A stretch of 64,000 nucleotides of DNA from Candidatus Woesearchaeota archaeon (GCA_964412025.1 CAYPLY010000001.1:134922-198921), one strand, 5' to 3'. Numbered from the stretch's first letter, positions 8,344-61,890 are shown. Program-made: numbers and translations. The notes: a model not told the origin generated them from the sequence alone.

Positions 8344-8346
8344 AAT

Positions 8347-10055: not shown

Positions 10056-10056
10056 T

Positions 10057-10287: not shown

Positions 10288-10288
10288 T

Positions 10289-10732: not shown

Positions 10733-10734
10733 TT

Positions 10735-11706: not shown

Positions 11707-11798
11707 AAATCATATTGGTTAATAAAGGTTATTGTGGTAAAATATTCATGTAATCTTTAGGGAGTTTAATTAAATTTAAGAAGCCATTTTTCGTATTA

Positions 11799-12590: not shown

Positions 12591-12592
12591 AA

Positions 12593-12700: not shown

Positions 12701-12753
12701 AGTTTGAGATAGATAAAATTGATTTATAAAAGTTTGGTTTGTAATTTTTGGGG

Positions 12754-13407: not shown

Positions 13408-13424
13408 TTTTATGGGTTATTTCT

Positions 13425-14015
13425 TTATTTAATTAATTCACCAAATGTCTTTTCAGAAATTCCAGCAGCATTTGCTTCGTCTGTGTCTAAATGTACAGCT
13501 AAATCATAATTCTTAGATATTCTTACAAGAGTATTATGGAAAGTTATTTTCCTTTGTCCGGGTATTCTTATGGATACAATTTGGTGATTCTTAAGTTTTA
13601 TTTTCTTTGCTTGTTCTTCTGAACAATGCAAATGTCTTTGAGCAATTATTACAGGTATCTTTGTTTTTCCTTTTGGACCTCTGACCAATACATGTGTTGT
13701 CCCATGTATATCTCCCGAGAGTCTTACTTTAGGTAAGGGTTTAATATTTAATTGATATGCATCTGTAAGTGACATTTCTATCTGGGAAAATTCTCTTAAA
13801 GGTCCCAATACCCTTGCACCTAACTTTTCTTTTCCGTTTATTATCTCTACTTTATTTTTTGATGCAAATTCCCCTGGTTGAGATAGTTTTTTTATAGACT
13901 CTAATTTTTTATTCTTCCCAAATAATTTTCCGAAATCTTCTTTGGATAAATGAATGTGTCTTGCAGATGTCTCTATAGGTACCTTTAAACTTGTTTTTAT
14001 TTTCTTAAACTTCAT
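13425..14015 (-). CDS. pduL: PduL-type phosphotransacylase
   Basis: SARHIHLS, QPGEFA, VLGPLR, RLSGD, IAQRHLH, HLDTDEANAA. Confidence 0.92.
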   Translation of the reverse strand: MKFKKIKTSLKVPIETSARHIHLSKEDFGKLFGKNKKLESIKKLSQPGEFASKNKVEIINGKEKLGARVLGPLREFSQIEMSLTDAYQLNIKPLPKVRLSGDIHGTTHVLVRGPKGKTKIPVIIAQRHLHCSEEQAKKIKLKNHQIVSIRIPGQRKITFHNTLVRISKNYDLAVHLDTDEANAAGISEKTFGELIK

Positions 14016-15058
14016 TTTAATTTTTTTAAAACCTCTTCAGCAGCCATGCTCTCTTCATCTGCTTTTATTACATATACTTTTATCTTTGAGAATATTGATG
14101 ATATTTTTCTCTGGTTGTTTTCATTTTTAGTTTTATTCAATCTTAATCCTAAGAATCTTAATTGTGAGCATATATCTTTTCTTAGCTTTGGTACGTTTTC
14201 TCCTATTGCTGCAGTAAATACCAAATTATCTAATCCGTTTAGTACAGTAATATATGACCCAATTACTTTTGTTATTCTATACACAAATAAGTCATAAGCG
14301 AGTTTGCACTCCTTTCGTTCTCCCATTTCCTTTAATATGTCTCTAAAATCATTATATCCAGATATTCCCTTTAATCCTGATTCATTTGTTAGAATATCTT
14401 CTACATTATACTTTTTTTTATGCAAGAAAAAGATTATCCCCGGATCTATGCTTCCTGAACGAGTTCCCATCATTATACCCTCCAAAGGAGTTAAGCCCAT
14501 GCTTATATCGAGAGGTTTCCCTTCTTTTATGGCTGATATACTTGAACCAGAACCTAAATGACATACTATTGTTCTACCCTTTAGCCCCTTTGAGGAATAT
14601 TCATGAGATAATCCATGGAAACCATATCTTCTTATATTATATTTTTCAGTTATTTCTCTTGGTATTGCATATGTTTTTGCAACCTCAGGTATATTTGAAA
14701 AAAACATTGTATCAAATACTGCATACTGGGGTTTTTTGAATTTTTCACATAATTCTATTACCATCAATTGTTTTGGATTGTGTAATGGTGCAAATTCGGA
14801 GAAGGTTCTTATTTTATTTTTTACCTCGTTATCTATTATTGAAGTCTCCTTTAGCTCTCCTCCATGTACTACCCTATGTGCAAGAACGTCAATATTTTTA
14901 TCCTTAAATTGGATGAATATTTCTTGTACTGCGTTTTCGTAATCTTTTTTTGATTTTAATTTTTCTTTATTTCCATACTCCAATAATTTTAAATCTTCAA
15001 ATAAACTATACTTTATACTTGAACTTCCAACGTTAAACACTAATATTTTTTTTTGCAT
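14012..15058 (-). CDS. ackA: Acetate kinase
   Basis: NVGSSSIKY, HRVVHGG, APLHN, VFDT, RRYGFHGLSH, CHLGSGSS, TPLEG, GTRSG, IGEN; likely ATG at 15058. Confidence 0.95.
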   Translation of the reverse strand: MQKKILVFNVGSSSIKYSLFEDLKLLEYGNKEKLKSKKDYENAVQEIFIQFKDKNIDVLAHRVVHGGELKETSIIDNEVKNKIRTFSEFAPLHNPKQLMVIELCEKFKKPQYAVFDTMFFSNIPEVAKTYAIPREITEKYNIRRYGFHGLSHEYSSKGLKGRTIVCHLGSGSSISAIKEGKPLDISMGLTPLEGIMMGTRSGSIDPGIIFFLHKKKYNVEDILTNESGLKGISGYNDFRDILKEMGERKECKLAYDLFVYRITKVIGSYITVLNGLDNLVFTAAIGENVPKLRKDICSQLRFLGLRLNKTKNENNQRKISSIFSKIKVYVIKADEESMAAEEVLKKLK

Positions 15059-15285
15059 AGAATTTTTCCCCACATTATTTTTTTCCATATTCTTTCATGG
15101 AAATATAAAAATATAACTTTTATAATCGCAAGGATTAATGTAAACATCAAAGACATTTTGATATCTCCATAAACTAAATAAACTGCAGATAATGTTATCA
15201 AGAAAGCGATTATTTCCCAACTTAATGCCTTAAGAAGACTTCTTTCTGTTGTTGATGTAATATATTCTCCTCTCTTTTTTTCCAT
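15040..15285 (-). CDS. DUF2061-family small membrane protein
   Basis: RSLLKALSW... two helices ...YFHERIW. Confidence 0.8.
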   Translation of the reverse strand: MEKKRGEYITSTTERSLLKALSWEIIAFLITLSAVYLVYGDIKMSLMFTLILAIIKVIFLYFHERIWKKIMWGKILCKKKY

Positions 15286-15344
15286 TGTATTTATAATAAG
15301 GTAATGTTTTTAAGCTTTAATAATTGTACTTTTATACGAATAAA

Positions 15345-15413
15345 TGATGCCCCGATAGTTCAAAAGATATAAATATCTAGAACTCTCGGAAACGCTGATG
15401 CCCCGATAGTTCA
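15345..15413 (+). repeat. 18-bp direct repeat TGATGCCCCGATAGTTCA (15345-15362 and 15396-15413); duplicated tRNA-Glu 5' end
   Basis: Exact match read from the sequence; the second copy overlaps tRNA positions 1-14. Confidence 0.9.
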
Positions 15414-15571
15414 GAGGCCAAGAACGCCACCCTCTCAAATCATGCCGGAGTTCAATCGATGAGATAATAATTCCAGCCTTCTCTAAGGCAGGCTAGTTAG
15501 TTTTATCGCCTTATATTTTCTTAGGGCGATGGAGTACGGTGGTAACCCGAGTTCGAATCTCGGCCGGGGCG
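15400..15571 (+). tRNA. tRNA-Glu(CTC) with a 99-nt intron (15438-15536) at position 37/38
   Basis: Cloverleaf with anticodon stem CCACC/GGTGG, anticodon CTC at 15434-15436, T arm CCGAG-TTCGAAT-CTCGG; BHB with central helix CTCT/GGAG and 3-nt bulges; near-identical to tRNA-Glu(TTC) at 63550. Confidence 0.92.
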
Positions 15572-15744
15572 TTTATCCTTAGGTTTAACATAGCTATATA
15601 AAACGAATAATTCTGCGTAGAAATGATGCAGTTTTTGAACAGAGAGGTGAAATAAATGGTTTGGTGCTTAGAAAGGGAGGTGAACTAGTTAAATTCTTAA
15701 AAGCTAAACAAAATATTTATAAATTACATATATATCTAATATAT

Positions 15745-15897
15745 ATGCCTAAAAAGCAGATAATTGTAAAATTTGAGGGGTCTGAGATTCTTGAGAGAAA
15801 AGCTTCTAAGTTTGGAACTGGTGCTCATGTAATTATTCCTAAAGAATACATAAACAAAAAAGTAAAAATTATTATGGAGGATGAAGATGACAAGTAA
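15745..15897 (+). CDS. DUF2080-like (AbrB-like) small protein
   Basis: ERKASKFGTGAHVIIPKEYINKKVKII motif; ATG at 15745 preferred. Confidence 0.75.
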   Translation: MPKKQIIVKFEGSEILERKASKFGTGAHVIIPKEYINKKVKIIMEDEDDK

Positions 15898-18800
15898 AAA
15901 ATATTTTTTTGCTTTAATCAGCATAATTTTGATAACACTCTTATCCTATGAGGTTTTAGCAGGGACTAATGTTCCAGATTGTGGAATAACAATCAATATC
16001 TCAGGACAATATGAATTAAACGCGGGAATTTCTGGGACAGCAACTTGTCTAACAATTAATACAAGTAATATAGAACTAGATTGCAAAGGAAATACTATTT
16101 CTTATGGTTCAGATGGAGTTAATGGAAGAATTGGAATATCTGTTGCCCTTGGAACAGTTTATCTTGAAAATATCACAATAAAAAATTGCATAATTCAAGA
16201 CACAAATCCTGCTGGAACCACGGGGTATGGAATATATGCATTAAGAACATCTAATTCATATATAATTAACAATACAATTAATACAAGCGGAACTGCTACA
16301 AATCACGGGATTTATTTATCTACTGCAAGTCAAAATAATCTTCTTGAAAATAATACCATAAATGCTTATGGAAGCACTACAGGAAACTATGGGATTTATT
16401 TAATTTATCAATCAAATAATAACACAATTAGAAACAATGAAGTAAAGGCAACAGGAACAACAACAAGCTATGCACTCATGCTTTATAGCTCAGAATATAA
16501 TTTAATAGAAAACAACAATTTTTCAAGTTACACTCTTTTAACAACAGGAAATTCAGATATGAATGTAGTTTATTTATACTATGGTTCAAGATATAATATT
16601 TTAAGAAATAATTACATTTATTCAGATGCTGAAGCAAGAAATTACCATATTTATCTAAATTTAAATAATAATTATAATATCATTGCAAATAATACTATAA
16701 TTCCAAATGATGATGAAGGAACAAACCCTGGAATTTATATTCTTGGTTCTGATTACAATCTTGTAGAGAATAATACCATTAGAACAAATGGAACAACAGC
16801 CAATTATGGGGTTTGGTTAGGAGCATCTTCAACAGGAAATATGATTAATAAAAATAATATTATCACAAATGGAACTACAACCAACAATTACGGAATTTAT
16901 TTGGTAAGTGCACTTTACAATAATATAACAGAAAATCAGATCTCCTCAAATGGATTAACAACAGGTAATGCAGGAATAACTTTATCAAGTGCCCAAAGAA
17001 ATTACCTTGCAAGAAATAATATTTCTACAAGTGGGACAACAACAGGATATGGAATTTATTTGACTGGTTCTGATTATGACACAGTAGAAGATAATGATAT
17101 TTCTACATTTGGAACAAGCACTGCAAATGATGGAATCTATTTAATCTCTTCTACAAACAATAACATAATAAACAACAGAATAACTGCAAATAGCACCTCT
17201 TCTGGAAATATTGGTATTGCTTTATATACCTCAACAGGAAATTCTTATGTTTATAATAATACTATAAAAACTGATGGAACAACTACAAATTATGGTATTT
17301 TATTACAGACTGCAAATAATAATTCGATAGTAAATAATCAAATATCAACCAGTGGAACAACTACAACAAATCATGGAATTTATCTTTATATAAGTGCAAA
17401 TGCAAACAAAATCTACTATAATAATATCTCTACATATGGCACAACAACAAATCATGGGATTTCACTTAGCACAACTTCAGATGGAAATGAAATTGTTGGA
17501 AATTATATAATAGCTAATGGCTCAACAACAGCCTCCGCAACAACAACAAATAATTTTGGAATTGCTGCTGCTACAAGTTGTTATAATAATCTTATGGAAA
17601 ATAATACAATACTAAATTCCGGAGGAAGGTATAACTATGGTATATATATTTCAGTAGAATCTGGATATTCTACAATTAGAGGAAATAATATTACTACTGG
17701 AGGAAGTGGGGCCACAAATGCAGGAATTTATCTTTCAGAAAGCAGAAACAACCTTCTAGAAGAAAATATAATCTCTACTTCAGGTTCTGCTACAGATTAC
17801 GGTATTTATCTGTATTCTAATGCAAAATATAATTTTGTTAAGAAAAATAATATTACAACCTCAGGAAGTACTAATTCTTATGGAATTCTTCTTGATGCAG
17901 TAATTCCAAACTTCCCCCACAATAATTCTTTTCAAGAAAATAATTTTATTAGTATTGCTGGAACAGAATTTAGATTTGCTGATGCAGAAATAGATGAAAA
18001 TTATTTAATTAGCCAGATTATTGACAGTTACTTATTTACTGGAATTGGAAGCAAAATGATTGTTAGAAATGACTCTGCAGGAGAAATAAAATTCTTAGAT
18101 AGATTAACTGGTTCTGGAACAGGATTTAGTGATGATGTATACATTTTAGAGAATTATGCTTTTATTGATTCGAGTATCCCAGGATTAAACAAGTCAGCAG
18201 AGATAACCATTTATAATTTACCAACAACTTCAAATGAATTACAAATTTACAGGAATGGTATAATCTGCAGTGATTGTTTTAATTTAACTTCAATGCAAGC
18301 AGGAAATGTAACATTTAATGTAACACAAGGAGGAGGATACTCAATTAATTCCTCAAGTTCATCTCCTTTAATAGAATTAGATTTCCCTGAAAATGATTAT
18401 TTAACAAATCAGCAAAATATTAATTTTAATTTTACAGCTAGAGATGATTCTGTAGGAGATTTAAATTGTAGCATTTATATTGATTCTATTTTAAATCAAA
18501 CCAATTCAACAACTCAAAATAATACTCTAACTAATTTTGCTGCTAGTGGATTAACTGAAGGAAATCATAACTGGAATATTGAATGTTTTGATTCAGCAGG
18601 AAATAGAAATATTTCTGAAACAATAAATTTTACAATAACAATTTCACAATCATCCTCATTATTTAATTATCCAGAGAATAAATCTTATTTTAATAATTTA
18701 GACTTTATATTGTTAAATTATACTGTTTTAGATTTAGATTTAAAGATAATGACTGCTTGGATTTATGGGGATGAAATTCTTCTAAATACAACTTCAGGAT

Positions 18801-21800
18801 TAACTAATGGTTCATCTTTAGTTTACAATTGGACAAGTTTAGATTTAGGACAATATAACTGGTCTATAATAATCTGGAATGGAATAAAGAACTCTTCTAT
18901 TGAATATTCTTACTTTAATAATATTAATTTAACAATAAATTGTGAAGCAGGAGGAGATTATCTTGAAGATCCAACTGTTTTAATTCAAGGAAGAATAAAT
19001 GACAGTAGCGGGATAGTTTCATTAAGTTCACAAATAATTAATATTTCTATTTACAATGATTCCACAGAGGAAATAATCACTTCTTCAAATATAACCACAG
19101 AATCAAATGGTGTATTTAATAGTATATTTCCTGGATTGGAAATAGGAAATTACACTGTTTATACAAAAGTTAATTATCAAGGAATTGAAATAAATAGTTC
19201 AGACTCATTTAAAATTTCTCTTGGATATGAAGCAGGTTACAATGCAGGATTTATTGCTGGAAATGAATCAGGATATATTTCTGGATTTGATTATGGTAAT
19301 ATCACAGGATTTAATTTAGGAAATATCACAGGATTTATACTTGGAAACAATACTGGTTTCACATTAGGAAATACAACTGGATTTGTATACGGTAACCTCA
19401 CAGGATTTGTTTTAGGAAATTCAACTGGTTACATTTTAGGTAATGCAACTGGATTTACATTAGGAAATTATACCGGGTTTATATTAGGAAATCAAACAGG
19501 ATTTATAATAGGAAATATTTCAGGTTTCAATCTTGGTAATTCAACCGGTTTTACACTTGGAAATTATACTGGATTCATATTAGGAAACATTTCAGGATTC
19601 TACTTTGGAAACCAGACAGGTTATACTACAGGTTACAATGCAGGATTTATTGCTGGAAATGAATCAGGATATATTTCTGGATTTGATTATGGTAATATCA
19701 CAGGATTTAATTTAGGAAATATCACAGGATTTATACTTGGAAACAATACTGGTTTCACATTGGGCAACTCAACTGGTTATACCTTGGGATTTAACACAGG
19801 TAATATAACCGGATTTACTCTAGGTAATACTACCGGCTTTGTATACGGAAATAATACTGGTTATATTTTAGGATTTAATACAGGCAACTTAACAGGCTTC
19901 ACATTAGGAAACACAACTGGCTTCGTTCTTGGCAACTCTACAGGTTATGTTTTAGGAAATGCAACTGGCTTTGTATATGGTAACACAACAGGATTCATAT
20001 TAGGAAACACAACGGGATTTGTATATGGAAATATCACTGGATTTGCTTTGGGTAATTCAACAGGATTTACACTTGGAAATTTAACAGGTTATATTCTTGG
20101 AAATCAAACAGGTTATAACGCAGGATTTACAACAGGAAACACAACTGGATTTAATCTAGGAAATACTACAGGTTTCACATTGGGCAACTCAACTGGTTAT
20201 ACCTTGGGATTTAACACAGGTAATATAACCGGATTTACTCTAGGTAATACTACCGGCTTTGTATACGGAAATAATACTGGTTATATTTTAGGATTTAATA
20301 CAGGCAACTTAACAGGCTTCACATTAGGAAACACAACTGGCTTCGTTCTTGGCAACTCTACAGGTTATGTTTTAGGAAATGCAACTGGCTTTGTATATGG
20401 TAACACAACAGGATTCATATTAGGAAACACAACGGGATTTGTATATGGAAATATCACTGGATTTGCTTTGGGTAATTCAACAGGATTTACACTTGGAAAT
20501 TTAACAGGTTATATTCTTGGAAATCAAACAGGTTATAACGCAGGATTCAGCACAGGAAACACAACTGGATTTAATCTAGGAAATACTACAGGTTTCACAT
20601 ACGGAAATCTTTCAGGATTTGATCTAGGTAATGCCACGGGTTATACCTTGGGTTATAATGCTGGTGTTAATGTTAGCAATCGCACTTCAGCATCCCTAGT
20701 CTTGGATAAGATTGCAAGTTTGCAAAATATAACAAATGGAACTATTTCATATAATGTAACTTTAAGATTAACAAACAAAGGAGGAAGCAATTCAACAAAT
20801 GTTAACATAACAGATTTAGATTATGGTTCTAACTTTACAATTGGAAATTTAACAGCAGGAGAATCAATTACAAGAAGCTATCTTATTAATTTCACAAGAA
20901 ATATGACAACATATTCAAATGCAACATCAATTGCTCATGCATATGGTATTGATTCTTATTCATCTGGACAAATTTTGGCAAACTCTAGCTCAATGAATTT
21001 ACCTGTCCCATCAAATGAATCTGGGCAGCAATTAACTTTGATTAAGAATGTATTTTATATTAATCAAACATTCACAGATGTAAATTATACTGTTAGTTTT
21101 GAAGTTATTAATTCCGGAGGATCAGATTTAACAGGGATTACAATAATTGATGACGATTTGGGTATTTCTGATGTAATAAGCTTGAGTAAAACACAAAGTT
21201 ATACCTACTCGGGATCATTAATAATATCTAAGAATCAGGATAATAAAGAGCAAATATTTTCAATAGCAAGAGGAACTGTAAATGCTGTTATTTATTCTTC
21301 AAATCAAATAAAAGTTTTAATTCCAGGATATGGTGGAGGTCCAAATGATGTAAGCATTAATGCTCCTACATCTGTTTTTAATAACACCAATTTCAATGTG
21401 GATATAACTGTGAAGAATAAAAATAAAGACATAGGCCAGGACTTTGTTGTAACTTATTGGCTCTTGAGCAATGACGAGATTTCAATATATTCAACTGGAG
21501 CTCAAACTCTTTATGTTGGAGGAAATGATAATACCAATGCAACTACAATTGTATTCTTATCTCCTGCAATTAATGGAACATATAAAATAAGGGCAAATGT
21601 GAGCGGAACAGGAGTAAGTGTTCAAGCTACTGCTTTTTCAACAATTCTTGTTACGTATCCTTCAAATGAAACTGCAAATGAAACTCCAGTAAATCCTCCG
21701 CACGGAGGAGGTGGAGGTAGCAGAATAAGCTGTGTATATATCTGGGAGTGTGGTTCTTGGAGCCTATGTGCAGATGATGGAACTCAATCAAGAACATGTA

Positions 21801-22510
21801 CTAATACAGGAACCTGTACAGGAATAGAAGGAAAACCAGCAGAAAAAATGAATTGCTTAGAGGTTTCTTCTGATATTGTATTAAAATTAAGTCAATTAAA
21901 TTTAACTGAAAATCAAAGTTTAGAATTTAATATTGATTTGATTGAGAAGAAATCCTATGAAAACAAAGATATACAGATAACATATTCTATCTTTAATAAA
22001 ACAAATATAGAGGTATTCACTAAAACAGAGACTCGTTCACTTGAGACAAATATAAGTTATAAGGAGATTTTGGATGAATTAATGCTTACTCCAGGAGAAT
22101 ATACATTAAAAGTACATATATTCTATGGCAACTCTCAAAGTTCAGAAGAGGTACAATCATTTATTATAAAAGAAGAAGGTAAAAATAATATTGGAAGTAA
22201 ATTACTTCTTGAGTTAACACCCGAAACAAATTTTTTAACTTACTTGGCAATATTTGTAATCCTTATCTTATTAATATCGCTGTTTGTGATTATGAAAAAG
22301 AAGAGAGATGTTGATGAAGTTGACTTATTGATAAAAGAAGGAAAAAGGAATATTGACAATGAAAATTTTGATGAAGCATTAGATGTCTATCCTGTTCTTA
22401 AGAGCTTATATAAACACAAATATAAAGGGGACCCATCTGCTTATGAAAAGATTACTTCTTACTCTCAATTTATTTTAAAAAGTATTAAGGATAAATTAAA
22501 AAAAGACTAG
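15881..22510 (+). CDS. Giant (2,209 aa) membrane-anchored surface protein: signal peptide, parallel beta-helix (NosD/pectin-lyase-like) repeats, Ig-like segments, ~480-aa GxxxG repeat, TSP1-like Cys motif, C-terminal TM
   Basis: Repeats GIYL...N.I.NN.I; G[FY]xxGNxT repeats at residues ~1115-1595; CGSWSLC...QSRTC; hydrophobic LAIFVILILLISLFVIM followed by KKKR. Confidence 0.85.
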   Translation: MKMTSKKYFFALISIILITLLSYEVLAGTNVPDCGITINISGQYELNAGISGTATCLTINTSNIELDCKGNTISYGSDGVNGRIGISVALGTVYLENITIKNCIIQDTNPAGTTGYGIYALRTSNSYIINNTINTSGTATNHGIYLSTASQNNLLENNTINAYGSTTGNYGIYLIYQSNNNTIRNNEVKATGTTTSYALMLYSSEYNLIENNNFSSYTLLTTGNSDMNVVYLYYGSRYNILRNNYIYSDAEARNYHIYLNLNNNYNIIANNTIIPNDDEGTNPGIYILGSDYNLVENNTIRTNGTTANYGVWLGASSTGNMINKNNIITNGTTTNNYGIYLVSALYNNITENQISSNGLTTGNAGITLSSAQRNYLARNNISTSGTTTGYGIYLTGSDYDTVEDNDISTFGTSTANDGIYLISSTNNNIINNRITANSTSSGNIGIALYTSTGNSYVYNNTIKTDGTTTNYGILLQTANNNSIVNNQISTSGTTTTNHGIYLYISANANKIYYNNISTYGTTTNHGISLSTTSDGNEIVGNYIIANGSTTASATTTNNFGIAAATSCYNNLMENNTILNSGGRYNYGIYISVESGYSTIRGNNITTGGSGATNAGIYLSESRNNLLEENIISTSGSATDYGIYLYSNAKYNFVKKNNITTSGSTNSYGILLDAVIPNFPHNNSFQENNFISIAGTEFRFADAEIDENYLISQIIDSYLFTGIGSKMIVRNDSAGEIKFLDRLTGSGTGFSDDVYILENYAFIDSSIPGLNKSAEITIYNLPTTSNELQIYRNGIICSDCFNLTSMQAGNVTFNVTQGGGYSINSSSSSPLIELDFPENDYLTNQQNINFNFTARDDSVGDLNCSIYIDSILNQTNSTTQNNTLTNFAASGLTEGNHNWNIECFDSAGNRNISETINFTITISQSSSLFNYPENKSYFNNLDFILLNYTVLDLDLKIMTAWIYGDEILLNTTSGLTNGSSLVYNWTSLDLGQYNWSIIIWNGIKNSSIEYSYFNNINLTINCEAGGDYLEDPTVLIQGRINDSSGIVSLSSQIINISIYNDSTEEIITSSNITTESNGVFNSIFPGLEIGNYTVYTKVNYQGIEINSSDSFKISLGYEAGYNAGFIAGNESGYISGFDYGNITGFNLGNITGFILGNNTGFTLGNTTGFVYGNLTGFVLGNSTGYILGNATGFTLGNYTGFILGNQTGFIIGNISGFNLGNSTGFTLGNYTGFILGNISGFYFGNQTGYTTGYNAGFIAGNESGYISGFDYGNITGFNLGNITGFILGNNTGFTLGNSTGYTLGFNTGNITGFTLGNTTGFVYGNNTGYILGFNTGNLTGFTLGNTTGFVLGNSTGYVLGNATGFVYGNTTGFILGNTTGFVYGNITGFALGNSTGFTLGNLTGYILGNQTGYNAGFTTGNTTGFNLGNTTGFTLGNSTGYTLGFNTGNITGFTLGNTTGFVYGNNTGYILGFNTGNLTGFTLGNTTGFVLGNSTGYVLGNATGFVYGNTTGFILGNTTGFVYGNITGFALGNSTGFTLGNLTGYILGNQTGYNAGFSTGNTTGFNLGNTTGFTYGNLSGFDLGNATGYTLGYNAGVNVSNRTSASLVLDKIASLQNITNGTISYNVTLRLTNKGGSNSTNVNITDLDYGSNFTIGNLTAGESITRSYLINFTRNMTTYSNATSIAHAYGIDSYSSGQILANSSSMNLPVPSNESGQQLTLIKNVFYINQTFTDVNYTVSFEVINSGGSDLTGITIIDDDLGISDVISLSKTQSYTYSGSLIISKNQDNKEQIFSIARGTVNAVIYSSNQIKVLIPGYGGGPNDVSINAPTSVFNNTNFNVDITVKNKNKDIGQDFVVTYWLLSNDEISIYSTGAQTLYVGGNDNTNATTIVFLSPAINGTYKIRANVSGTGVSVQATAFSTILVTYPSNETANETPVNPPHGGGGGSRISCVYIWECGSWSLCADDGTQSRTCTNTGTCTGIEGKPAEKMNCLEVSSDIVLKLSQLNLTENQSLEFNIDLIEKKSYENKDIQITYSIFNKTNIEVFTKTETRSLETNISYKEILDELMLTPGEYTLKVHIFYGNSQSSEEVQSFIIKEEGKNNIGSKLLLELTPETNFLTYLAIFVILILLISLFVIMKKKRDVDEVDLLIKEGKRNIDNENFDEALDVYPVLKSLYKHKYKGDPSAYEKITSYSQFILKSIKDKLKKD
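19233..19761 (+). repeat. 133-bp identical direct repeat (19233-19365 and 19629-19761), offset 396 bp
   Basis: Read directly from the sequence. Confidence 0.85.
19751..20600 (+). repeat. 420-bp tandem duplication (unit 19751-20170, repeated from 20171)
   Basis: Lines 19801-20100 equal 20221-20520; only 3 mismatches seen near 20128/20548. Confidence 0.9.
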
Positions 22511-55093: not shown

Positions 55094-55121
55094 AAGATAA
55101 TAACCTTTGGGTTATAATCTA
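55094..55121. promoter_or_regulatory. 11-6-11 inverted-repeat site AAGATAATAAC-CTTTGG-GTTATAATCTA (putative recombinase binding site)
   Basis: Arms 9/11 complementary; 41 bp upstream of the recombinase ATG. Confidence 0.6.
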
Positions 55122-55128
55122 CTTTTCA

Positions 55129-55156
55129 AGTAGATATAATAGATGTTATATTCAAT
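55129..55156 (+). other. dif/attI-like recombination junction AGTAGATATAA-TAGATG-TTATATTCAAT (left cassette boundary)
   Basis: TATAA-N6-TTATA core of Xer-type sites; GATGTTAT repeated at the right boundary (59070-59077). Confidence 0.75.
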
Positions 55157-55293
55157 TTTTGGATTACTCAAGACGGAAAAGAGAGAGGGGCTTAGTCCTT
55201 CGGACATTTTGCCTTTTACTTCGTAAAAGAATTTATAGGAAGGAGCGTCAAGATAGTCTTTTTCTACGAAAAAGAAATTTACTAGGTGGCGTC
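55156..55293 (-). repeat. Structured GACGC-hairpin repeat element after the M1 stop codon (inverted homolog of 58696-58849)
   Basis: Shared AGTAATCCAAAAA (13 bp), GCCCCTCTCTC (11 bp), GACGC units with T/A-rich hairpins, GTCC-TTCG-GAC. Confidence 0.75.
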
Positions 55294-56079
55294 TTAACAA
55301 TAATCCTTTAATTTAGTATTCTTTTTATGTTTACTTATTCTTTTATTCGCTAACTCGATGTATTCCTTATTATTATCTATGCCAATCCAATTTCGATTTA
55401 ATTGCATGGATGCCAAAGCAGTTGTTCCACTTCCCATAAAGGGGTCAATAACAATGTCTCCTTCATCTGTTGCCATCTCAATTAATCTTGTAAATAATTC
55501 TAAGGGTTTTTGAGTTGGATGTGCTGCTCTCCCATTTTCTCCTTTAATTCTTTCAGAACCTTGACAAACTGGAAACTCCCAAACATCTTTTAACTGCTTA
55601 CCTTGATTATACTTTTTCATATTGTTATAATTAAATTTCCATCCTTTCCCCTTTGCAAACCATGCAATAAATTCCGTAGAATGAGTTAATGTTCTTTTCG
55701 TAATACTTGGCATAGGATTTGTTTTTCTCCATGTTATCAGATTAATAAATTTGTATCCTTTATCTTTTAAAGCTACAATTACTTCTCCTATATTATGTAA
55801 AGAACCACAAACCATCATCGAACCATTTGGAGCAAGAATCTTATCAGCCTCATCAATCCATTTTTTTGTAAAGTCCATATAATCTTCATAAGAGAATTTA
55901 TCCCATTTTTCATTTACTTTGTAATATGCTCCACCTGTTTTATTATCTGGCAGATTTACTCCACCATTTGATGCATTATATGGTGGGTCAGTTAATACTA
56001 AATGAATTTTTCCTTTAGGAAAATCCCCCATTATCTTTATACAATCTCCTTCATGATTTTTATTTATTACATTATTCAT
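55294..56079 (-). CDS. N6A/N4C DNA methyltransferase, beta class (M1)
   Basis: TDPPY, HPTQKP, DPFMGSGTT in beta-class order. Confidence 0.93.
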   Translation of the reverse strand: MNNVINKNHEGDCIKIMGDFPKGKIHLVLTDPPYNASNGGVNLPDNKTGGAYYKVNEKWDKFSYEDYMDFTKKWIDEADKILAPNGSMMVCGSLHNIGEVIVALKDKGYKFINLITWRKTNPMPSITKRTLTHSTEFIAWFAKGKGWKFNYNNMKKYNQGKQLKDVWEFPVCQGSERIKGENGRAAHPTQKPLELFTRLIEMATDEGDIVIDPFMGSGTTALASMQLNRNWIGIDNNKEYIELANKRISKHKKNTKLKDYC

Positions 56080-57908
56080 GCTAAAATACCTTCTTTTTCA
56101 TATTTTTGAAGAATTGTATTAGATTTTCTCGCCCAATCATCAACATCTTTGGAATCTATTGCGACATTATGTAGTGTTAATAATAATTCTTTAAACTCGT
56201 TATGAGTAATTGGTTTATTTTCTAATTTTTTTATTAACACTCTTTTTAATATTTTTAAAAATTGAGTTATGCTCAGAGGAATTATTTTTTGTTTTTCTCC
56301 CTCATACTCATATTTGTTTGAAAAGCTAAATGTGTTAAAAGTATCTCTGTGAATTCTTGGGGCAATAAACAAACAAAAAGAATTATCATTATTTTTAATT
56401 TCAAAATCTCTTAAATGCCTCATAACTGGTTGTCCTTCATTAATCCATTGACTTCTACTTACTAACATAGTAACTTCACAAATCATATTGAAAGATTCAT
56501 AAACACATTCTATATCTGGAACATTGGCTGGTGCTGTAAAAGTTGGTCTGTTATCATCTCCTACAGGATAATTAGGCTGTATTTTCAAGGCGTCATTAAT
56601 CGCATGTAAGCATAACGTTGTTAGGTGTTCTAGTTCTATTGATTGGCTTTTATCACTTCCATGAATATTTTCAAGAGTTTTGATTACTTCCTTAAAATTA
56701 TCAGCATTAGCTAATTCTGTATGATTAATATACTCCTGCACTCTTCGCCTAAGAATTCTTAAATCTGCCATTATTGGTTTTAATTCATTAACTCTCAATG
56801 ATTCAATGTTTACTTCAAATAATTTTTTCTCTAAAGTTAATGGTTTGCTTAGAGATTTGTTTAATTCAAATATTTCTTTTCTAAGGTTCACAATAATATT
56901 TTTTAATTTGTCTTGTGTATCCCATGGATAGATTACATCAGAATCCATATAATCAAGGTATTCCTCAAGAGTTTTGAATTTCAAACCTTCACCATTACTA
57001 TATTCCAGAAGAGAGGTTATTTCAACATTTCTTCTCGGTTCTAAATCAATATAGAAACCACCACCACGAATATAAAAGAATCTTGTTATCTTAAAATATC
57101 GGATTGCATTATCACCATAATCTTTTAAATTATGAAAGTTTATATCGAGATGTTTTCCTTCGGGATCTTCAAAGAATTTTTTAGTTTTATCTGTAAAACA
57201 ATCTTTTTTTATTGCAGTTTGTTCTTTTTTGTCTTTACCTTTTAATTTATTTCTTAATGCAATAATTTCATTAACTGTTTTAGGGATGTCATCATAATTA
57301 ATTGTAGTTGGCACAAAATAACAAAATTCATGTTTAGAAATTCCGACAGGTTCATTCCCTAATTTTTTCCATTTCTTGTTTACTTCATTGATAATATGAA
57401 GAGTTGTAATAAATGGTCTTACATTAAAACCATTTTTTTCAGAAAACTCTTCATTATCTGGATTTGGTAAAGTCCATTTAAAGAAATATTCTAAGAAAAT
57501 TTCTCCCATGTCGAAATCTTTTTGTAAAAATTTCTTTCCAAAATTTGTGATGTATAGTTTACTTACTGTTTGTTTAGATACAACCAAACCCATTTTACTA
57601 AGCGGGGCAATAGATGTCCTTCCTCTTAGCCCAGGGTCATCTTTTAAAACAGTAGATTTTTCTTTCATATGTTCAAAAATTTCTTTTGCTTCTTTTTCTG
57701 ACATATCAGAAGGAGAATTATAATAGCCCGATAATTTTTCATTAAGGCCTGTTGGTTTATACAGCTTTCTTTTAATCAATGCTATTTGAAATTTTATCTG
57801 TTGATTCTCATTAAATTCAACACCCTCAAAATCTTTAAGAACTTCCAAAAACCCCCTAATTCTATCGGGATTTCTTACAGTAGTTGAAATTGACCATGCT
57901 CTTTTCAT
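56076..57908 (-). CDS. AlwI-family type IIS restriction endonuclease
   Basis: WSISTTVRNPDRI N-terminus, DYGDNAIRYF, APANVPDIE...EVT, EGQPVMRH, FIAP; flanked by two MTases. Confidence 0.8.
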   Translation of the reverse strand: MKRAWSISTTVRNPDRIRGFLEVLKDFEGVEFNENQQIKFQIALIKRKLYKPTGLNEKLSGYYNSPSDMSEKEAKEIFEHMKEKSTVLKDDPGLRGRTSIAPLSKMGLVVSKQTVSKLYITNFGKKFLQKDFDMGEIFLEYFFKWTLPNPDNEEFSEKNGFNVRPFITTLHIINEVNKKWKKLGNEPVGISKHEFCYFVPTTINYDDIPKTVNEIIALRNKLKGKDKKEQTAIKKDCFTDKTKKFFEDPEGKHLDINFHNLKDYGDNAIRYFKITRFFYIRGGGFYIDLEPRRNVEITSLLEYSNGEGLKFKTLEEYLDYMDSDVIYPWDTQDKLKNIIVNLRKEIFELNKSLSKPLTLEKKLFEVNIESLRVNELKPIMADLRILRRRVQEYINHTELANADNFKEVIKTLENIHGSDKSQSIELEHLTTLCLHAINDALKIQPNYPVGDDNRPTFTAPANVPDIECVYESFNMICEVTMLVSRSQWINEGQPVMRHLRDFEIKNNDNSFCLFIAPRIHRDTFNTFSFSNKYEYEGEKQKIIPLSITQFLKILKRVLIKKLENKPITHNEFKELLLTLHNVAIDSKDVDDWARKSNTILQKYEKEGILA

Positions 57909-57977
57909 AATATTTTACCCCTCATACTATCTTAAAAGCCAACATATTTAAATATTATGCGTTTTAGGGGTTATATT

Positions 57978-58697
57978 ATGGCAAAAAAGAATGTTGATTT
58001 GAAAAAAGGGGAATGTGTAAGTATTCTTAAGAAAATGCCAGACAATTCCGTAGATATGATATTTGCAGACCCTCCTTATAATCTTTCTGGAAAAAATCAT
58101 ATTACTTGTGTTAATGGAAGAAAAGTAAAATGTGATAAAGGTATTTGGGACATGGTCGCAGATATTGATAAATTTAATTATGATTGGATAAAAGAGTGTA
58201 TGCGTGTTCTAAAGGATGATGGAACTATCTGGATTTCAGGAACATTACATAACCATCCTTCTGTTGGCTTTTTACTTAAAAAAATGGGATACTGGATAAT
58301 AAATGATATTGTTTGGTTTAAACCAAATGCTCCCCCTCAATTACAACCTAATAGACTTGCTCCATCTACCGAGATGATTTGGTTAGCGAGTAAGACAAAA
58401 AAATATTATTTTGATTATAAAAAAGCAAAGGAAATTAATGACGGAAAACAAATGAGAAACCTTTGGACTATTAATGCTCAAAGACATATCACAAATCACC
58501 CTACTGAAAAGCCAGAACTTCTTTTAGAAAGGATAATTCTTCTTGGAAGTAAAGAAGGCGATGTTATCTTAGATCCTTTTATGGGTTCAGGAACAACAGG
58601 AGCAGTCGCTAAAAAGTTAAATAGAAGTTTTATAGGGATTGAACTTGACGATGAATTCTTTGAAATTGCAAAAGATAGAATAAATAATACTAAATGA
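57978..58697 (+). CDS. N6A/N4C DNA methyltransferase, beta class (M2)
   Basis: FADPPY, HPTEKP, DPFMGSGTT; ATG 57978. Confidence 0.93.
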   Translation: MAKKNVDLKKGECVSILKKMPDNSVDMIFADPPYNLSGKNHITCVNGRKVKCDKGIWDMVADIDKFNYDWIKECMRVLKDDGTIWISGTLHNHPSVGFLLKKMGYWIINDIVWFKPNAPPQLQPNRLAPSTEMIWLASKTKKYYFDYKKAKEINDGKQMRNLWTINAQRHITNHPTEKPELLLERIILLGSKEGDVILDPFMGSGTTGAVAKKLNRSFIGIELDDEFFEIAKDRINNTK

Positions 58698-58849
58698 CGC
58701 CCCTAAATGTTCTTTTTAGAAAAGAACCAAAACAAGACGCCCCTTCTATCTTCTTTTTTAGAAAAAAGAAGCAAAAAATCTGACGCCCCTCTCTCGTCCT
58801 TCGGACATATTCACTCGCCTTTGGCTCGAATTTATCAGTAATCCAAAAA
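58696..58849 (+). repeat. Three GACGCCCC units (58696, 58736, 58782) with intervening hairpins, after the M2 stop codon
   Basis: Hairpins GTTCTTTT/AAAAGAAC and CTTCTTTTT/AAAAAGAAG; TTCG-loop hairpin at 58796. Confidence 0.8.
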
Positions 58850-58909
58850 CTCTAAAATTTTGCCTTCGGCATCGTTGCACTAAATTTTAGGTCTTCCCGT
58901 TGGTCAGAC

Positions 58910-59080
58910 GAATATAACAGGGCTTAACCGACTACGAAACCTTGCAGGTTTCTCCGTCCAAATTTTGCCCCATCTCTGAAAAAATTCTCAGCTCTGTTTC
59001 GGTTTTGTGGGTTGCCTCAAAACCTCACGAGGAGAATTTTTTCGAGGGGTCAAAACTTCGTTTAAGCCCGATGTTATGTG
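58910..59080 (+). other. attC-like ssDNA hairpin recombination site (~170 nt)
   Basis: ATAAC/GTTAT outer stem, GGGCTTAA/TTAAGCCC, TTTTGCCCC/GGGG-T-CAAAA with an extrahelical T, GAAAAAATTCTC/GAGAATTTTTTC, GGTTTTG/CAAAACC. Confidence 0.78.
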
Positions 59081-59110
59081 CAATCTAGAAATATCTTGTT
59101 TATTCAATCA

Positions 59111-60388
59111 TCATTCTCCCTCAAACTTAATAAGGCTAAAGAAAGGATATTTTGAAATCTTTTCTTTTCCTTTTAATTCCGGAAGTTCCATAACAAACAT
59201 ACACCCAATAATTTGTCCCCCTACTTTTTCAATAAGGTTTACAGCTGCTTTAACTGTTCCACCTGTTGCAATTAAATCGTCAACAAGTAATACTTTTTGT
59301 CCTGGTTTTATAGAGTCTTTATGTATTTCAACTGCATCCTCTCCATACTCCAAAGAATAACTTTCTTTTACTGTTTCGTAGGGTAATTTTCCTGGCTTTC
59401 TTATTAAAGCTAATCCTGCATTTAACTTTTCAGCTAAAAGGCCTGCAATGATAAAACCCCTTGATTCAATTCCTGCAACTATATCTATTGGTATTTCATA
59501 ACATTTTTCGTAAAGTATTTCTGTAAGTTTTTTAAGAGATTCTCTATCTTGAAGGAGAGGAGTCACATCTTTAAACATAATTCCTTCTTTTGGAAAGTTT
59601 GGAATTGTACGTACTTTTTCTTTTAGTTTTTGAATTTCTTGTTCTCTTGAAAAAGAGTTTATCGCATCAAAAATAACTTTTTTGACACGTTCAGCATTTT
59701 CCTTCATATTATTTTTTATTGTTAACCAATCTACTGGTTCTTCATCTTCTTTCCAGCAGTCATAATCCGTTGACATTGCTATTGTTGCATATTGTACTTC
59801 TGCCTCGTTTGCAAGAATGGCTTCAGGAGATGTAGACATATTTATTATATCTCCTCCCCATTGTCTGAAAAGGTGGCTTTCTGCTTTGGTTGAGAATCTT
59901 GGCCCTTCTATTGTTATAACTGTTCCAGTTTTATGGTATGAGAATTTTAATTTTTCACAGCTTTCAGTTAGCTTTTTTCTTAATTCTTCCGAAAAAGGAT
60001 TTGCCATGGGAGTGTGGATTGGACCAAATTCAAACTTATCAAAAAAGGTTAGTTTTCTGTTTTTTGTAAAATCAATAAATTGATCTGGAATAATAAAATC
60101 TCCTCTCTTTATTTCTTCTCTAAGTGAGCCCGCGGCTGTTGTTGAGATTATAAATTTACAACCTTCATTTTTTAGTGCAAATATATTTGCACGATTGTTT
60201 ACTTCTGTTGGAGGGATTTCATGTTTTATCCCATGCCTTGAAATTATAAAGACATCTATGCTCCCTATCTTTCCAATTGTCAATGGAGAAGATGGTTTTC
60301 CAAAAGGGGTTTCTACTTCTTTTGTTTTGTAATCTGTAAGAATCTCTGGATTCTCAAGCCCAGAACCACCTATTATACCAATTTTCAT
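59111..60388 (-). CDS. Fused methylthioadenosine phosphorylase (MTAP) - adenine phosphoribosyltransferase (APRT)
   Basis: IGIIGGSG, RHG, IEGPRFSTKAES, TDYD, then PNFPKEGIMFKD, GIESRGF, RKPGKLP, LLVDDLIATGGT; ATG 60388. Confidence 0.92.
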   Translation of the reverse strand: MKIGIIGGSGLENPEILTDYKTKEVETPFGKPSSPLTIGKIGSIDVFIISRHGIKHEIPPTEVNNRANIFALKNEGCKFIISTTAAGSLREEIKRGDFIIPDQFIDFTKNRKLTFFDKFEFGPIHTPMANPFSEELRKKLTESCEKLKFSYHKTGTVITIEGPRFSTKAESHLFRQWGGDIINMSTSPEAILANEAEVQYATIAMSTDYDCWKEDEEPVDWLTIKNNMKENAERVKKVIFDAINSFSREQEIQKLKEKVRTIPNFPKEGIMFKDVTPLLQDRESLKKLTEILYEKCYEIPIDIVAGIESRGFIIAGLLAEKLNAGLALIRKPGKLPYETVKESYSLEYGEDAVEIHKDSIKPGQKVLLVDDLIATGGTVKAAVNLIEKVGGQIIGCMFVMELPELKGKEKISKYPFFSLIKFEGE

Positions 60389-60441
60389 AATAAATATTGG
60401 AGAGGAAAAGATTTTATAAGTATTTTTGTAATGAAAGATAC

Positions 60442-61890
60442 ATGTTAAACCCATCGAAAAATGAGGTTCGTAAACCTACAAAAACAATCTCAGGTATAAC
60501 TCCTGTAGCAGTTATGTTGCCTCCTAGAAAATGCAAGCATGGTAATTGTATTTATTGCCCTTCAATGGATGTCCCCCAAAGTTATACCCCAAAAAGTCCT
60601 GTTGTGTTAAGGGCTAAATCTCTGGATTATAATTCTTACAAACAGGTTGTTTCTCGTCTTAAGGCATTTGAAGTTATGAATCATCCAACTGAAAAAATTG
60701 AGTTGATAATTATGGGAGGAACTTTTTTGGAATATCCTGAAAAATTTCAGTACAAATTTATAAAAGGATTGTATGATGGATTAAATGGTAAGGTTTCTAA
60801 TAATCTGAGCGAGGCAAAAAAATTAAATGAAAATTCAAAACATAGATGTGTTGCGCTTTGTATTGAAACTAGGCCAGATGTTTGTTGTGAATTTATCTCA
60901 AGAATGAGAGAATTTGGATGTACAAGGGTGGAGTTGGGTGTGCAATTAATAGATGATAAAGTGTATAAATTTGTAAAAAGAGGACATCTAGTTAAAGATG
61001 TTGTTTTAGCTACAAAATGTTTGAGAGATGCAGGTTTTAAGATAGGTTATCATTTAATGCCTGGGCTTCCTGGAAGTAATTTAAAGAAAGATTTGGAATT
61101 ATTTAAGAAGATTTTTTCTGATGAAAGATTTAAACCCGATCAGATTAAAATTTATCCTTGTCAAGTATTGCCCAATTCTGAACTTGAAAAAATTTATTGG
61201 GAAGGAAAATACAAACCTTATACTCCGGAGGAGATTCAGAAACTTTTAGTTAGTATGTTAAAAGTTATTCCAAGATATTGTAGGGTAATGAGGATTATGA
61301 GAGAAATTCCATTGGAATATTTAATTGCTGGAAGCAAAGATATTGGAATAAGGAAAGATGTTGAAGATGAGTTAAGAAAAGAAAAAGTTAAATTGAAAGA
61401 AATTAGATATAGAGAGGTTGGTTTTAATAAAGAAGGAATGAATTTAGATTTGAAATTAAAAGCAACCCCTTATAAAGCTTCAGGAGGAAAAGAGTATTTT
61501 TTGGAGATTGTTAATAAAGATAATGTGCTTTTTGGGTTACTTCGTTTGAGAATAGTTAGCAGTAATCTCGTTAAGAGGGGTTCGAGGAGTAATAAGCTTG
61601 GTTCAACGGGTAATAAGCTGAAAACTGTTGTTACAGATAATAAAATAGGATTAGTAAGAGAACTGCATGTTTATGGGCAGAGTTTGAAATTGGGAGAACT
61701 TGGAAAAGTTGGTCAACACACTGGTTTGGGAAAATGGTTAATGGAGGAAGCTGAAAAAATTGCGAAAAAAGAAAAATGCTCTGAGATTAAAGTGATTTCA
61801 GGAGTGGGGGTTAGGGAGTATTACAGGAAGTTAGGTTATGAATTGGAGAAAGGAAAAGGTAAAGGAGAATATATGAGAAAGCTTTTATAG
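60442..61890 (+). CDS. elp3: Elp3 tRNA wobble-uridine acetyltransferase (radical SAM plus GNAT)
   Basis: CKHGNCIYCP, MGGTF, ETRPD, VELGVQ, RELHVYG, QHTGLG, ISGVGVREYY. Confidence 0.94.
   Translation: MLNPSKNEVRKPTKTISGITPVAVMLPPRKCKHGNCIYCPSMDVPQSYTPKSPVVLRAKSLDYNSYKQVVSRLKAFEVMNHPTEKIELIIMGGTFLEYPEKFQYKFIKGLYDGLNGKVSNNLSEAKKLNENSKHRCVALCIETRPDVCCEFISRMREFGCTRVELGVQLIDDKVYKFVKRGHLVKDVVLATKCLRDAGFKIGYHLMPGLPGSNLKKDLELFKKIFSDERFKPDQIKIYPCQVLPNSELEKIYWEGKYKPYTPEEIQKLLVSMLKVIPRYCRVMRIMREIPLEYLIAGSKDIGIRKDVEDELRKEKVKLKEIRYREVGFNKEGMNLDLKLKATPYKASGGKEYFLEIVNKDNVLFGLLRLRIVSSNLVKRGSRSNKLGSTGNKLKTVVTDNKIGLVRELHVYGQSLKLGELGKVGQHTGLGKWLMEEAEKIAKKEKCSEIKVISGVGVREYYRKLGYELEKGKGKGEYMRKLL

Follow-up and report, generated by a model that had tools for sequence, protein, structure and literature searches.

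What are the structured tracts that flank a restriction-modification (RM) gene cassette in an archaeal genome, and why does the same design stand at both ends? The cassette lies within a stretch of 64,000 nucleotides from a Candidatus Woesearchaeota archaeon (GCA_964412025.1 CAYPLY010000001.1:134922-198921; hereafter the window), and its cargo consists of an AlwI-family type IIS nuclease and two CcrM-like methyltransferases. A first-pass annotation, made from the sequence, had noticed tracts of GACGC units and hairpins in inverted orientation at both cassette ends, and had suggested that the gene was captured stop codon first against a templated element, or that the tracts were a terminator or a module like repetitive extragenic palindromic (REP) sequences. 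In this study, we concluded that the tracts are very probably the conserved arms of a mobile, Xer-linked family of cassettes. On balance we also favour a fuller reading, in which they are the two arms of an attachment (junction) module of a mobile DPANN cassette family, the fold of the module and the XerA recombinase included.

Anatomy of the Two Tracts

The features that had been described were all found in place at both cassette ends, in inverted orientation and far above chance (Table 1). Together, the right tract (arm A) and the left tract (arm B) hold five GACGC units and four perfect T/A-rich hairpins, each of a different sequence, and the blocks GCCCCTCTCTC, AGTAATCCAAAAA and GAATATAACA are present in both tracts in inverted order. 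The pattern GACGCYCC occurs four times in the 64 kb, always within the tracts, where 0.21 copies were expected; 0 of 100 shuffles matched this. Inverted local alignment of one tract with the other gave a score of 31, compared with 10.8 ± 1.9 in shuffles (maximum 24 in 1000) and 17 in the direct-orientation control. Exact GAATATAACA is confined in the window to its two tract positions, and it was not enriched there when one mismatch was allowed. Both copies of GTCCTTCGGACAT were confirmed to lie in direct orientation, as had been noted.

The length of about 140-150 bp first given for the tracts holds for the left one (150 bp); the right one measures about 224 bp, because an extra 60-nt hairpin insertion (58850-58909) stands between AGTAATCCAAAAA and GAATATAACA. 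T5-T7 runs follow 13-25 nt past the stop codons of both methyltransferase genes (M1 and M2), and every unit carries such a run on both strands. Neither tract, nor the central palindrome that follows arm A, matched an Rfam family at gathering thresholds, and permissive thresholds gave chance-level matches only. When each arm was folded alone as RNA, the whole-arm folds were no better than those of shuffles (z = -1.0 and -0.6); only the hairpins taken singly, and the joined module described below, were distinctive.

Table 1. Features of the cassette and its borders, numbered from the first nucleotide of the window.
Feature	Position	Strand	Remarks
xerA-type tyrosine recombinase gene, 275 aa	54226..55053	-	transcribed away from cassette; Pfam Phage_integrase + Phage_int_SAM_4
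Occupied left junction	55129..55156	+	AGTAGATATAA dif-like left arm, spacer TAGATG, cassette-borne right arm TTATATTCAAT
Arm B (left tract)	55144..55293	-	from the sequence; aligned with 25 other B arms
Order of arm B		-	2 x (GACGCYMC + hairpin), GTCC-GAA-GGAC mini-hairpin, GCCCCTCTCTC, AGTAATCCAAAAATT, GAATATAACA
Shared block GAATATAACA	55144-55153 (-), 58910-58919 (+)		
Shared block AGTAATCCAAAAA	55156-55168 (-), 58837-58849 (+)		
Shared block GCCCCTCTCTC	55181-55191 (-), 58785-58795 (+)		
GTCCTTCGGACAT	55195-55207, 58796-58808		direct orientation
Perfect hairpin CTTTTAC/GTAAAAG	55213-55229		
Unit GACGCTCC	55242-55249	-	
Perfect hairpin TCTTTTTC/GAAAAAGA	55257-55275		
Unit GACGCCAC	55286-55293	-	directly after M1 TAA
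M1 stop TAA	55294-55296	-	abuts arm B
M1, N6/N4 DNA methyltransferase (CcrM-like)	55294..56079	-	Pfam N6_N4_Mtase 3.9e-62
R, AlwI-family type IIS restriction endonuclease, 610 aa	56076..57908	-	Pfam RE_AlwI 5.9e-87
M2, second N6/N4 methyltransferase	57957..58697	+	start probably 57978; Pfam N6_N4_Mtase 1.3e-58
M2 stop TGA	58695-58697	+	overlaps first GACGCCCC
Arm A (right tract)	58696..58919	+	from the sequence; aligned with 24 other A arms
Order of arm A, first half			3 x GACGCCCC with two T/A hairpins, GCCCCTCTCTC, GTCC-TTC-GGAC, GCC-TTT-GGC, AGTAATCCAAAAA
Order of arm A, after AGTAATCCAAAAA			long hairpin CTAAAATTT...AAATTTTAG around TGCC-TTC-GGCA, GTCT...AGAC, GAATATAACA
Unit GACGCCCC	58696-58703	+	overlaps M2 TGA
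Two further arm A units	58736-58743, 58782-58789	+	
Perfect hairpin GTTCTTTT/AAAAGAAC	58709-58727		
Perfect hairpin CTTCTTTTTT/AAAAAAGAAG	58750-58771		
Central imperfect palindrome (attC-like), 150 nt	58920..59069	+	ends CGATG|TTATGTGCAAT
Parts of central palindrome			L''/L' stem GGGCTTAAC/GTTTAAGCCC, CTTGCAG hairpin (conserved), TCCNYCCAAATT, variable hairpin with loop GGGTTGCCTC
Right junction GATG|TTATGTGCAAT	59070..59084	+	crossover region and chromosomal right arm of dif-like site

Insertion Site and Mobility of the Cassette

The cassette is mobile, and its exact borders lie at 55142-59069. Its junctions were seen in Logan contigs, taken from those runs in which window sequence is present. 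In a contig of run X2 the site is empty, with 55126-55141 joined straight to 59070 (TCAAGTAGATATAATA|GATGTTATGTGC), so that the site AGTAGATATAA-TAGATG-TTATGTGCAAT is restored beside xerA with no target duplication and no footprint. In runs X1-X3, 55142 is joined to the foot of another cassette's palindrome (...CGCCTTCGGCGACTTCGTTAAATTCC|GATGTTATATTC); therefore, the same cassette also sits within an array, and its depth in that position, behind the other palindrome, is about 5-fold higher. Within this one sample series, the insertion site is present both occupied and empty. Because both occupied junctions share GATGTTAT (55142-55149), the crossover was placed within it. Every central palindrome ends in a conserved CGATG|TT, and the insertion site matches the 11-6-11 geometry of archaeal dif (PMC2958812). 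The earlier observation that each tract leads toward a half-site was borne out, these being recombination half-sites.

Two neighbours of the site may be mentioned here. A perfect 8-bp hairpin (ATCTACTT/AAGTAGAT, 55117-55135) overlaps the dif-like left arm and lies in the promoter region of xerA, and the far side of the insertion site is adjoined by a housekeeping gene of the MTAP/APRT fusion type, encoding a purine/methylthioadenosine phosphorylase fused to a phosphoribosyltransferase (PNP_UDP_1 + Pribosyltran, 447 aa; 59111-60454, minus strand).

Arms, Cargo and xerA in Relatives

A scan for the unit pattern, in which every species was represented by one genome, gave 77 loci, 40 of them labelled as Woese-, Pace- or Nanoarchaeota-type (DPANN) archaea. 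The others, for the most part, were single matches in bacterial genomes of higher GC content (a rough estimate puts chance matches at about 20), and a few low-GC contigs under other taxonomic labels also bear arms. At the DPANN loci the units form outward-pointing pairs, 2-5 kb apart, around varied cargo. Two end types, about 90% conserved, recur beside unrelated cargo in roughly 40 DPANN metagenome-assembled genomes and in many metagenomes; the central palindrome invariably comes after arm A, and arm B always lies at the opposite end of the cassette. The cassettes measure 1-7 kb and hold 1-6 genes, often on both strands, and cargos that run in one direction mostly do so from A to B. Besides the RM system of the window, cargo includes TdeIII, HaeIII and ResIII systems (Pfam) and other defence genes (a 1504-aa DUF4011 helicase-nuclease, an OLD-family nuclease and TIR), and the same arms flank a P-type ATPase, a MacB-type ABC transporter, radical SAM enzymes and Lgt. 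Homologues of R (94-67% identity) were found in Nanoarchaeota-type contigs, whereas exact-protein look-ups of the window proteins matched no record. The tracts belong to the cassette, as had been proposed; scatter of the kind expected for a randomly placed repeat was not seen, and the 64-kb window holds no solo copies of the units. An origin from viruses was also considered and dropped, as a scan of IMG/VR with the arm motif returned two chance matches and no other motif.

Close relatives of the RM triad keep the right tract after M2, and the left tract adjoins whichever gene is last: M1 in the window, GmrSD in L001 and L004, and TIR in L008. Copies of the triad without any tracts also exist (L003, L006 and L015). 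Several details of these relatives deserve a record. RM cassettes that are otherwise near-identical hold different defence genes in the exact interval from the M1 stop (…GATTATTGTTAA) to arm B, namely GmrSD, two ThsB-type TIR genes, a 448-aa protein and an OLD/AAA_15 nuclease (L001:3852-6720, L004:2341-5212, L006:3295-4751, L012:3844-5190 and L037:5847-7463); the window version has none. A Rep_1 rolling-circle replication gene lies on the same 7 kb contig as one armless M2-R-M1 triad (L015:511-6280; R 85% identical); therefore, the triad also travels on a plasmid-like replicon. A related RM cassette (L012:1-315 and 5170-5370; also L013 and L014) has different arms, with AGTGCCTCTC, GATTTACGG and GTGTCTAAAAAAGT, mirrored around GAATATAACA and of the same loop polarity, so that mirrored arms seem to be a design rule of the system. 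In the DNA neighbouring that cassette, a ribonucleotide reductase gene carries an intein with a LAGLIDADG endonuclease (L012:6865-10584).

The family is also linked to xerA. XerA homologues (40-61% identical) stand 113-161 nt past the B arm at five metagenome loci and are farther away by one cassette at another five, and their polarity in these ten loci is always that of the window. A recombinase of the same position and polarity stands next to the B arm in L057, L062, L078, L081, L116, L136, L141, L166 and L171. At least 42 of 77 metagenome B arms are followed by the reverse complement of a central palindrome, and L001 and L048 contain arrays. The linkage and the arrays therefore give the layout xerA, dif-like attI, (arm B, cargo, arm A, palindrome) x n.

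The window recombinase passes the NCBIfam recomb_XerA_Arch model (224.9 bits; cut-off 220) and falls below the cut-off of 265 of the integron-integrase model TIGR02249 (203.6 bits), which it matches in two stretches. Its residues 11-183 correspond to TIGR02249 model positions 2-179 and its residues 201-275 to positions 254-330 of the IntI equivalog PRK15417, and about 57 model positions are missing where the IntI insertion lies, near patch III. XerA is the putative catalyst of cassette recombination, and no recombinase was found in the cargo of the window cassette or among 20 other cargo proteins scanned. As for the remaining genes of the window, M1 matched the NCBIfam CcrM-like model at 6e-74, under the equivalog cut-off, and the largest open reading frame (ORF) encodes 2209 aa (15881-22510, plus strand).

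Stop Codons and the Inner Edge of the Arms

Do the tracts always start at stop codons, as capture against a templated element would have it? In relatives they do not. A stop is found close to the arm, about ±12 nt away at most, where the terminal gene faces outward; this was so for 12 of 24 A arms and 12 of 22 B arms, and the share of stop-abutting arms is similar in a larger metagenome set of B arms. Arms that face a gene start are set off from it by a spacer of 30-230 bp. The inward limit of homology often, though not invariably, coincides with the first GACGC, the arms carry 0-3 units, and about a third of B arms have none. Since stops abut only outward-facing genes and spacers occur elsewhere, stop adjacency reflects extreme compaction of cargo between fixed arms rather than a signature of capture; the earlier proposal is further weakened by the same arms flanking unrelated cargo.

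In L048 (3190-3330, minus strand), arm A is separated from the first long cargo gene by a small ORF of about 55 aa, ribbon-helix-helix-like and accompanied by a TATA-like box, and small regulators of a similar kind may be encoded in the 190-230 bp spacers that other cassettes have at arm A. TATA-like boxes were seen beside arm A. An outward promoter formed by a TATA-like box just inside arm A was considered and rejected, as the box in L048 precedes the inward-facing ORF and therefore more likely serves the cargo.

The Central Palindrome and the Fold of the Joined Module

Positions 58900-59105, around the central palindrome, fold as DNA at -39.8 kcal/mol, compared with -19.4 ± 3.2 (z = -6.4). 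The same architecture was found in 19 relatives with different stem sequences, according to the pattern ...ATAAC-A/stem...stem/CGATG|TTAT; its length of 150-183 nt, which includes the R''/R' boxes and flanks, is above that of a typical attC. Two motifs within the palindrome are conserved: a hairpin with loop TTGC(A) followed by TCCNYCCAAATT (58936-58952), and a hairpin with a co-varying stem and the fixed loop GGGTTGCCTC (58999-59025). Both stand at the same positions in L001, L010, L025, L033, L054, L078 and L082, and they look like a specific recognition element.

In the arrays of L001 and L048, arm A, its palindrome and arm B of the next cassette are contiguous. The arrangement of a circle or an array was reproduced by joining the window's arm A and palindrome to its own arm B; folded as single-stranded DNA, this module had an energy of -112.2 kcal/mol, compared with -55.9 ± 5.05 (z = -11.2); the natural contiguous junction in L048 gave z = -5.4. 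In the joined fold, GACGCCCC pairs with GGNGCGTC, GCCCCTCTCTC with GAGAGAGGGGC, AGTAATCCAAAAA with TTTTTGGATTACT and GAATATAACA with TGTTATATTC, while every hairpin becomes a side arm. The sharing of blocks in inverted order by the tracts, and the difference between their hairpins, are thereby explained: the blocks pair as rungs, and the hairpins fold locally. Looping out only the central palindrome leaves the flanks GAATATAA-CAGATG-TTATRTKC, a near copy of the empty dif-like site.

The first-pass view that the tracts are structured and keep their pairing was examined by covariation, and compensatory changes were found in the helices. In the arm A alignment, 95.7% of cells were paired and 26 cells had changed on both sides, compared with 7.9 in shuffles; double-sided changes were also present in the arm B hairpins. 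For the local helices such changes exceeded both shuffles and slid controls, in modest counts. Loop polarity is strongly one-sided, and the arms are more than a mere inverted copy of each other. In 149 modules, the GC-closed mini-hairpins comprise 296 C-GNA-G and 2 C-TNC-G loops (63 and 2 distinct sequences), as read on the strand that presents arm A (as its reverse complement), cargo and arm B. The direct orientation of GTCCTTCGGACAT follows from this, because GNA triloops sit on one strand only. From the same polarity we infer that the module acts at least partly as folded single-stranded or extruded DNA; by analogy with attC or CTXphi attP(+), one strand would be the acting form.

A Model of the Junction Module and Its Alternatives

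Considering these results, we propose a plausible model. Cassettes integrate singly or in arrays at a dif-like site beside a xerA-type recombinase gene. In an array or an excised circle, arm A, the central palindrome (100-180 nt) and arm B make up one imperfect palindrome of about 0.5 kb, in which the GC-rich blocks GACGCCCC, GCCCCTCTCTC, AGTAATCCAAAAA and GAATATAACA are mutually complementary rungs, and the T/A-rich hairpins and GC mini-hairpins fold locally, their sequences being free to differ as long as pairing is kept. Folding would bring GAATATAA and TTATRTKC together as a dif mimic for XerA, with the arms stabilising the fold and holding its register. Crossover takes place at GATG|TT, at the foot of the central palindrome, and divides the module asymmetrically; therefore, an integrated cassette begins with arm B and ends with arm A and the palindrome, the arms appearing as inverted repeats. 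The oligo-T stems of the arms might also halt transcription between cassettes. The single-strand folding mechanism within this model is advanced tentatively. The GACGC units may have several roles that do not exclude each other, as rungs or side hairpins of the fold, as bidirectional oligo-T terminators insulating an often toxic, self-expressed cargo, or as duplex binding sites; their variable number argues that they are accessory, and GNA hairpin variants without a T run argue against a purely terminator role.

Several points weigh against the junction-module reading. The GACGC units are absent from about one third of the B arms picked by a core-proximal 23-mer; they are thus dispensable, and if they help folding they are not essential to it. 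In the window itself, the arm B units GACGCCAC and GACGCTCC are imperfectly complementary to arm A. A strong z-score would arise from any long imperfect inverted repeat and is no proof of function, and the covariation evidence is small, drawn from closely related copies that are not independent. The action of XerA, like the single-stranded or cruciform form, is something that we infer. Metatranscriptome contigs peak over the core-proximal part, and DNA metagenomes show an equal depth profile; the RNA contigs therefore say nothing on transcription, and a specific small RNA over 58850-59075, which the contig peak had suggested, was rejected on the same ground. Finally, the survey of archaeal integrons (PMC9668308) may have counted some central palindromes as attC in integrase-less arrays.

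Could the tracts be terminators or insulators only, whose tandem oligo-T hairpins block read-through both ways, so that the likeness of the two ends would reflect one reused module? That the arms terminate transcription is itself plausible, as they start within a few nucleotides of the stop whenever the end gene faces outward and bear a T5-T7 run on both strands of each unit; a unit number of 0-3 also suits a redundant accessory, and several unit-less B arms hold another T-rich hairpin, GTTTCTTTTTCTAAAAGAAAGG. As the whole explanation, however, we consider it unlikely, for the same arm A also stands upstream of cargo promoters, some variants keep the C-GAA-G loop without the T run (CTTGAC-GAA-GTCAAG in L027 and GGC-GAA-GCC in L047), and the invariant GC blocks, the mirror order and the GNA polarity (296 vs 2) are left unexplained. 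Rather improbable, too, is a reading of the arms as duplex accessory sequences bound by protein, like cer/psi (about 180 bp) or lambda P/P', with GACGCCCC as a repeated binding site that sets directionality or the topology of the XerA synapse. Among the genes linked to the cassettes there is no candidate for the binding protein, the units are frequently missing, and neither one-strand GNA polarity nor compensatory stem changes would be predicted, although it would fit an invariant GC-rich 8-mer recurring 2-3 times per arm, 40-55 bp apart and in mirror order, in a genome of 30% GC, as well as arms that always adjoin the core site. Conserved inverted flanks at Thermococcales dif, where a partner may bind, also speak for it (Cortez et al., PMC2958812).

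The remaining explanations fare worse. Scars of cassette making, left where a gene was captured stop first against a templated element, for example via an RNA intermediate, would account for the precise stop-codon junctions of four terminal genes (M2, M1, GmrSD and TIR), for the TAA(A) that mostly precedes the first arm B unit even where no long ORF ends, and for accessory genes swapped exactly between the M1 stop and arm B. Yet a gene start faces the arm at about half of the ends, a promoter-bearing spacer or small ORF lying in between, the homology edge is not fixed at GACGC, cargos of several genes on two strands with promoters of their own misfit capture of a single transcript, and the cassettes have neither a reverse transcriptase nor an intron linked to them; we therefore hold such scars to be very improbable. 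Terminal inverted repeats of a transposon or of a miniature inverted-repeat transposable element, or REP sequences and bacterial interspersed mosaic elements moved by a transposase or a REP-associated tyrosine transposase (RAYT), have hardly any credit with us. The inverted ends, the variable cargo, the abundance of hairpins and the very high copy number reached in groundwater metagenomes recall such elements, but no transposase or RAYT was present in any cargo scanned, the empty site shows neither target duplication nor footprint and restores the 11-6-11 dif-like site, and the borders are cores of the tyrosine-recombinase type. The REP-like module named in the first-pass annotation is likewise contradicted by the lack of dispersed or solo copies in the window and by the outward-pointing pairs at cassette ends in relatives. 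A negligible chance is left to GACGC as the recognition site of this RM system, clustered at the borders for self-regulation: it is asymmetric, as type IIS sites are, and 5 of its 11 window copies lie in the tracts, but it is not enriched window-wide (11 vs 7.9 expected), the same arms flank RM-free cassettes (P-type ATPase, ABC transporter and radical SAM), and CcrM-like methyltransferases (GANTC type) with an AlwI-family nuclease would point to a GAGTC- or GGATC-like site.

Significance of the Cassette Family

Returning to the arms of a mobile, Xer-linked family, we offer as a speculative extension, somewhat doubtful as it stands, that DPANN archaea possess a gene-capture platform analogous to integrons that arose from Xer/dif and not from IntI, with self-expressed cassettes mostly for defence, junctions that recombine as folded single-stranded DNA made up of strand-polarised C-GNA-G mini-hairpins, and the GACGC tracts as outer rungs. 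If this is true, there would be a second route to integron-like gene shuffling, built on housekeeping Xer/dif machinery, in ultra-small DPANN archaea, which dominate many groundwater communities. It would explain how defence systems and transporters circulate among reduced genomes and why DPANN assemblies break at such loci, and the conserved arms would provide a simple sequence handle to catalogue cassette cargo. The one-strand C-GNA-G design also bears on whether structure-specific recombination of single strands is a general solution or one peculiar to integrons.

The junction modules reach a summed k-mer depth of thousands in single groundwater metagenomes. In three of these (X8, X10 and X11), the inner module (58850-58966, the core-proximal hairpin of arm A with the first part of the palindrome) has a summed k-mer depth of 8,000-16,000 and the GACGC units one of roughly 140-1,600; the inner module is common to many more cassette families than the GACGC arms.

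Comparison with Known Systems

A literature search for an archaeal Xer-linked cassette system found none described, only the survey of archaeal integrons and the bacterial dif modules. Like integrons, archaeal ones included (Ghaly et al. 2022, PMC9668308), the present system has a recombinase gene at one end, transcribed away from the array, and an insertion site beside it followed by a polar array of cassettes, as in the order of the window and the arrays of L001 and L048. Each cassette ends in an imperfect palindrome that resembles attC in keeping its structure while its sequence varies, the crossover apparently comes immediately ahead of a GTT that is conserved at the 3' foot (G|TT), and one strand is seemingly singled out. 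In contrast to integrons, the recombinase is XerA-type and lacks the IntI-specific insertion, and the primary site resembles chromosomal dif. The cassettes, at 1-7 kb, are often multi-gene on both strands with putative promoter regions of their own, not promoterless single ORFs served by a common cassette promoter (Pc). As the first-pass annotation rightly held, a standard attC does not explain the tracts: conserved arms of 150-225 bp, common to the cassettes, lie outside a plain attC, the palindrome itself spans 100-180 nt, and about 150 bp extend beyond the crossover instead of 6 bp.

The attP(+) of CTXphi, as Val et al. are said to have found in 2005, is a folded single-stranded Xer substrate. 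The cassettes resemble CTXphi and other integrative mobile elements exploiting Xer (IMEX) in encoding no recombinase, in using an 11-6-11 dif-like site that is restored on loss, in forming tandem arrays, and in two inverted dif-like halves around a palindrome that could assemble a site on folding. Unlike those elements, they live in archaeal hosts with, presumably, a single XerA in place of XerC/D, and they are cargo cassettes with a common backbone and long, hairpin-rich arms, not phages. Their excision is also evident from the coexistence of empty and occupied sites, whereas integration of CTXphi is irreversible.

The Acinetobacter pdif/dif modules (PMC6449649, PMC12907356) are similar in being accessory-gene modules bounded by Xer sites, without a recombinase of their own, and reshuffled between replicons. 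They differ in that their boundaries are plain 28 bp inverted sites on plasmids, with no central palindrome, structured arms or array beside a xer gene. The arms of cer/psi and of lambda attP are duplex DNA bound by PepA/ArgR/ArcA and by Int/IHF/Xis, respectively. They share with the present arms 150-250 bp of non-core DNA by the crossover, split between the ends of the integrated element, but the arms described here are built of strand-polarised hairpins.

The DNA mini-hairpins d(GCGAAGC)/d(C-GNA-G) studied by Hirao, Yoshizawa and co-workers are reportedly of exceptional stability. The mini-hairpins of the arms and the palindrome are C-GNA-G triloops of this kind, and GTGCGAAGCAC contains the exact GCGAAGC; those earlier ones are known as isolated motifs, for example at phage origins, and are not known as building blocks of a recombination module. 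Taken as a whole, the system is integron-like and IMEX-like, yet it departs from the features that define an integron, having no IntI domain, cassettes that are large and apparently self-expressed, and 150 bp past the crossover.

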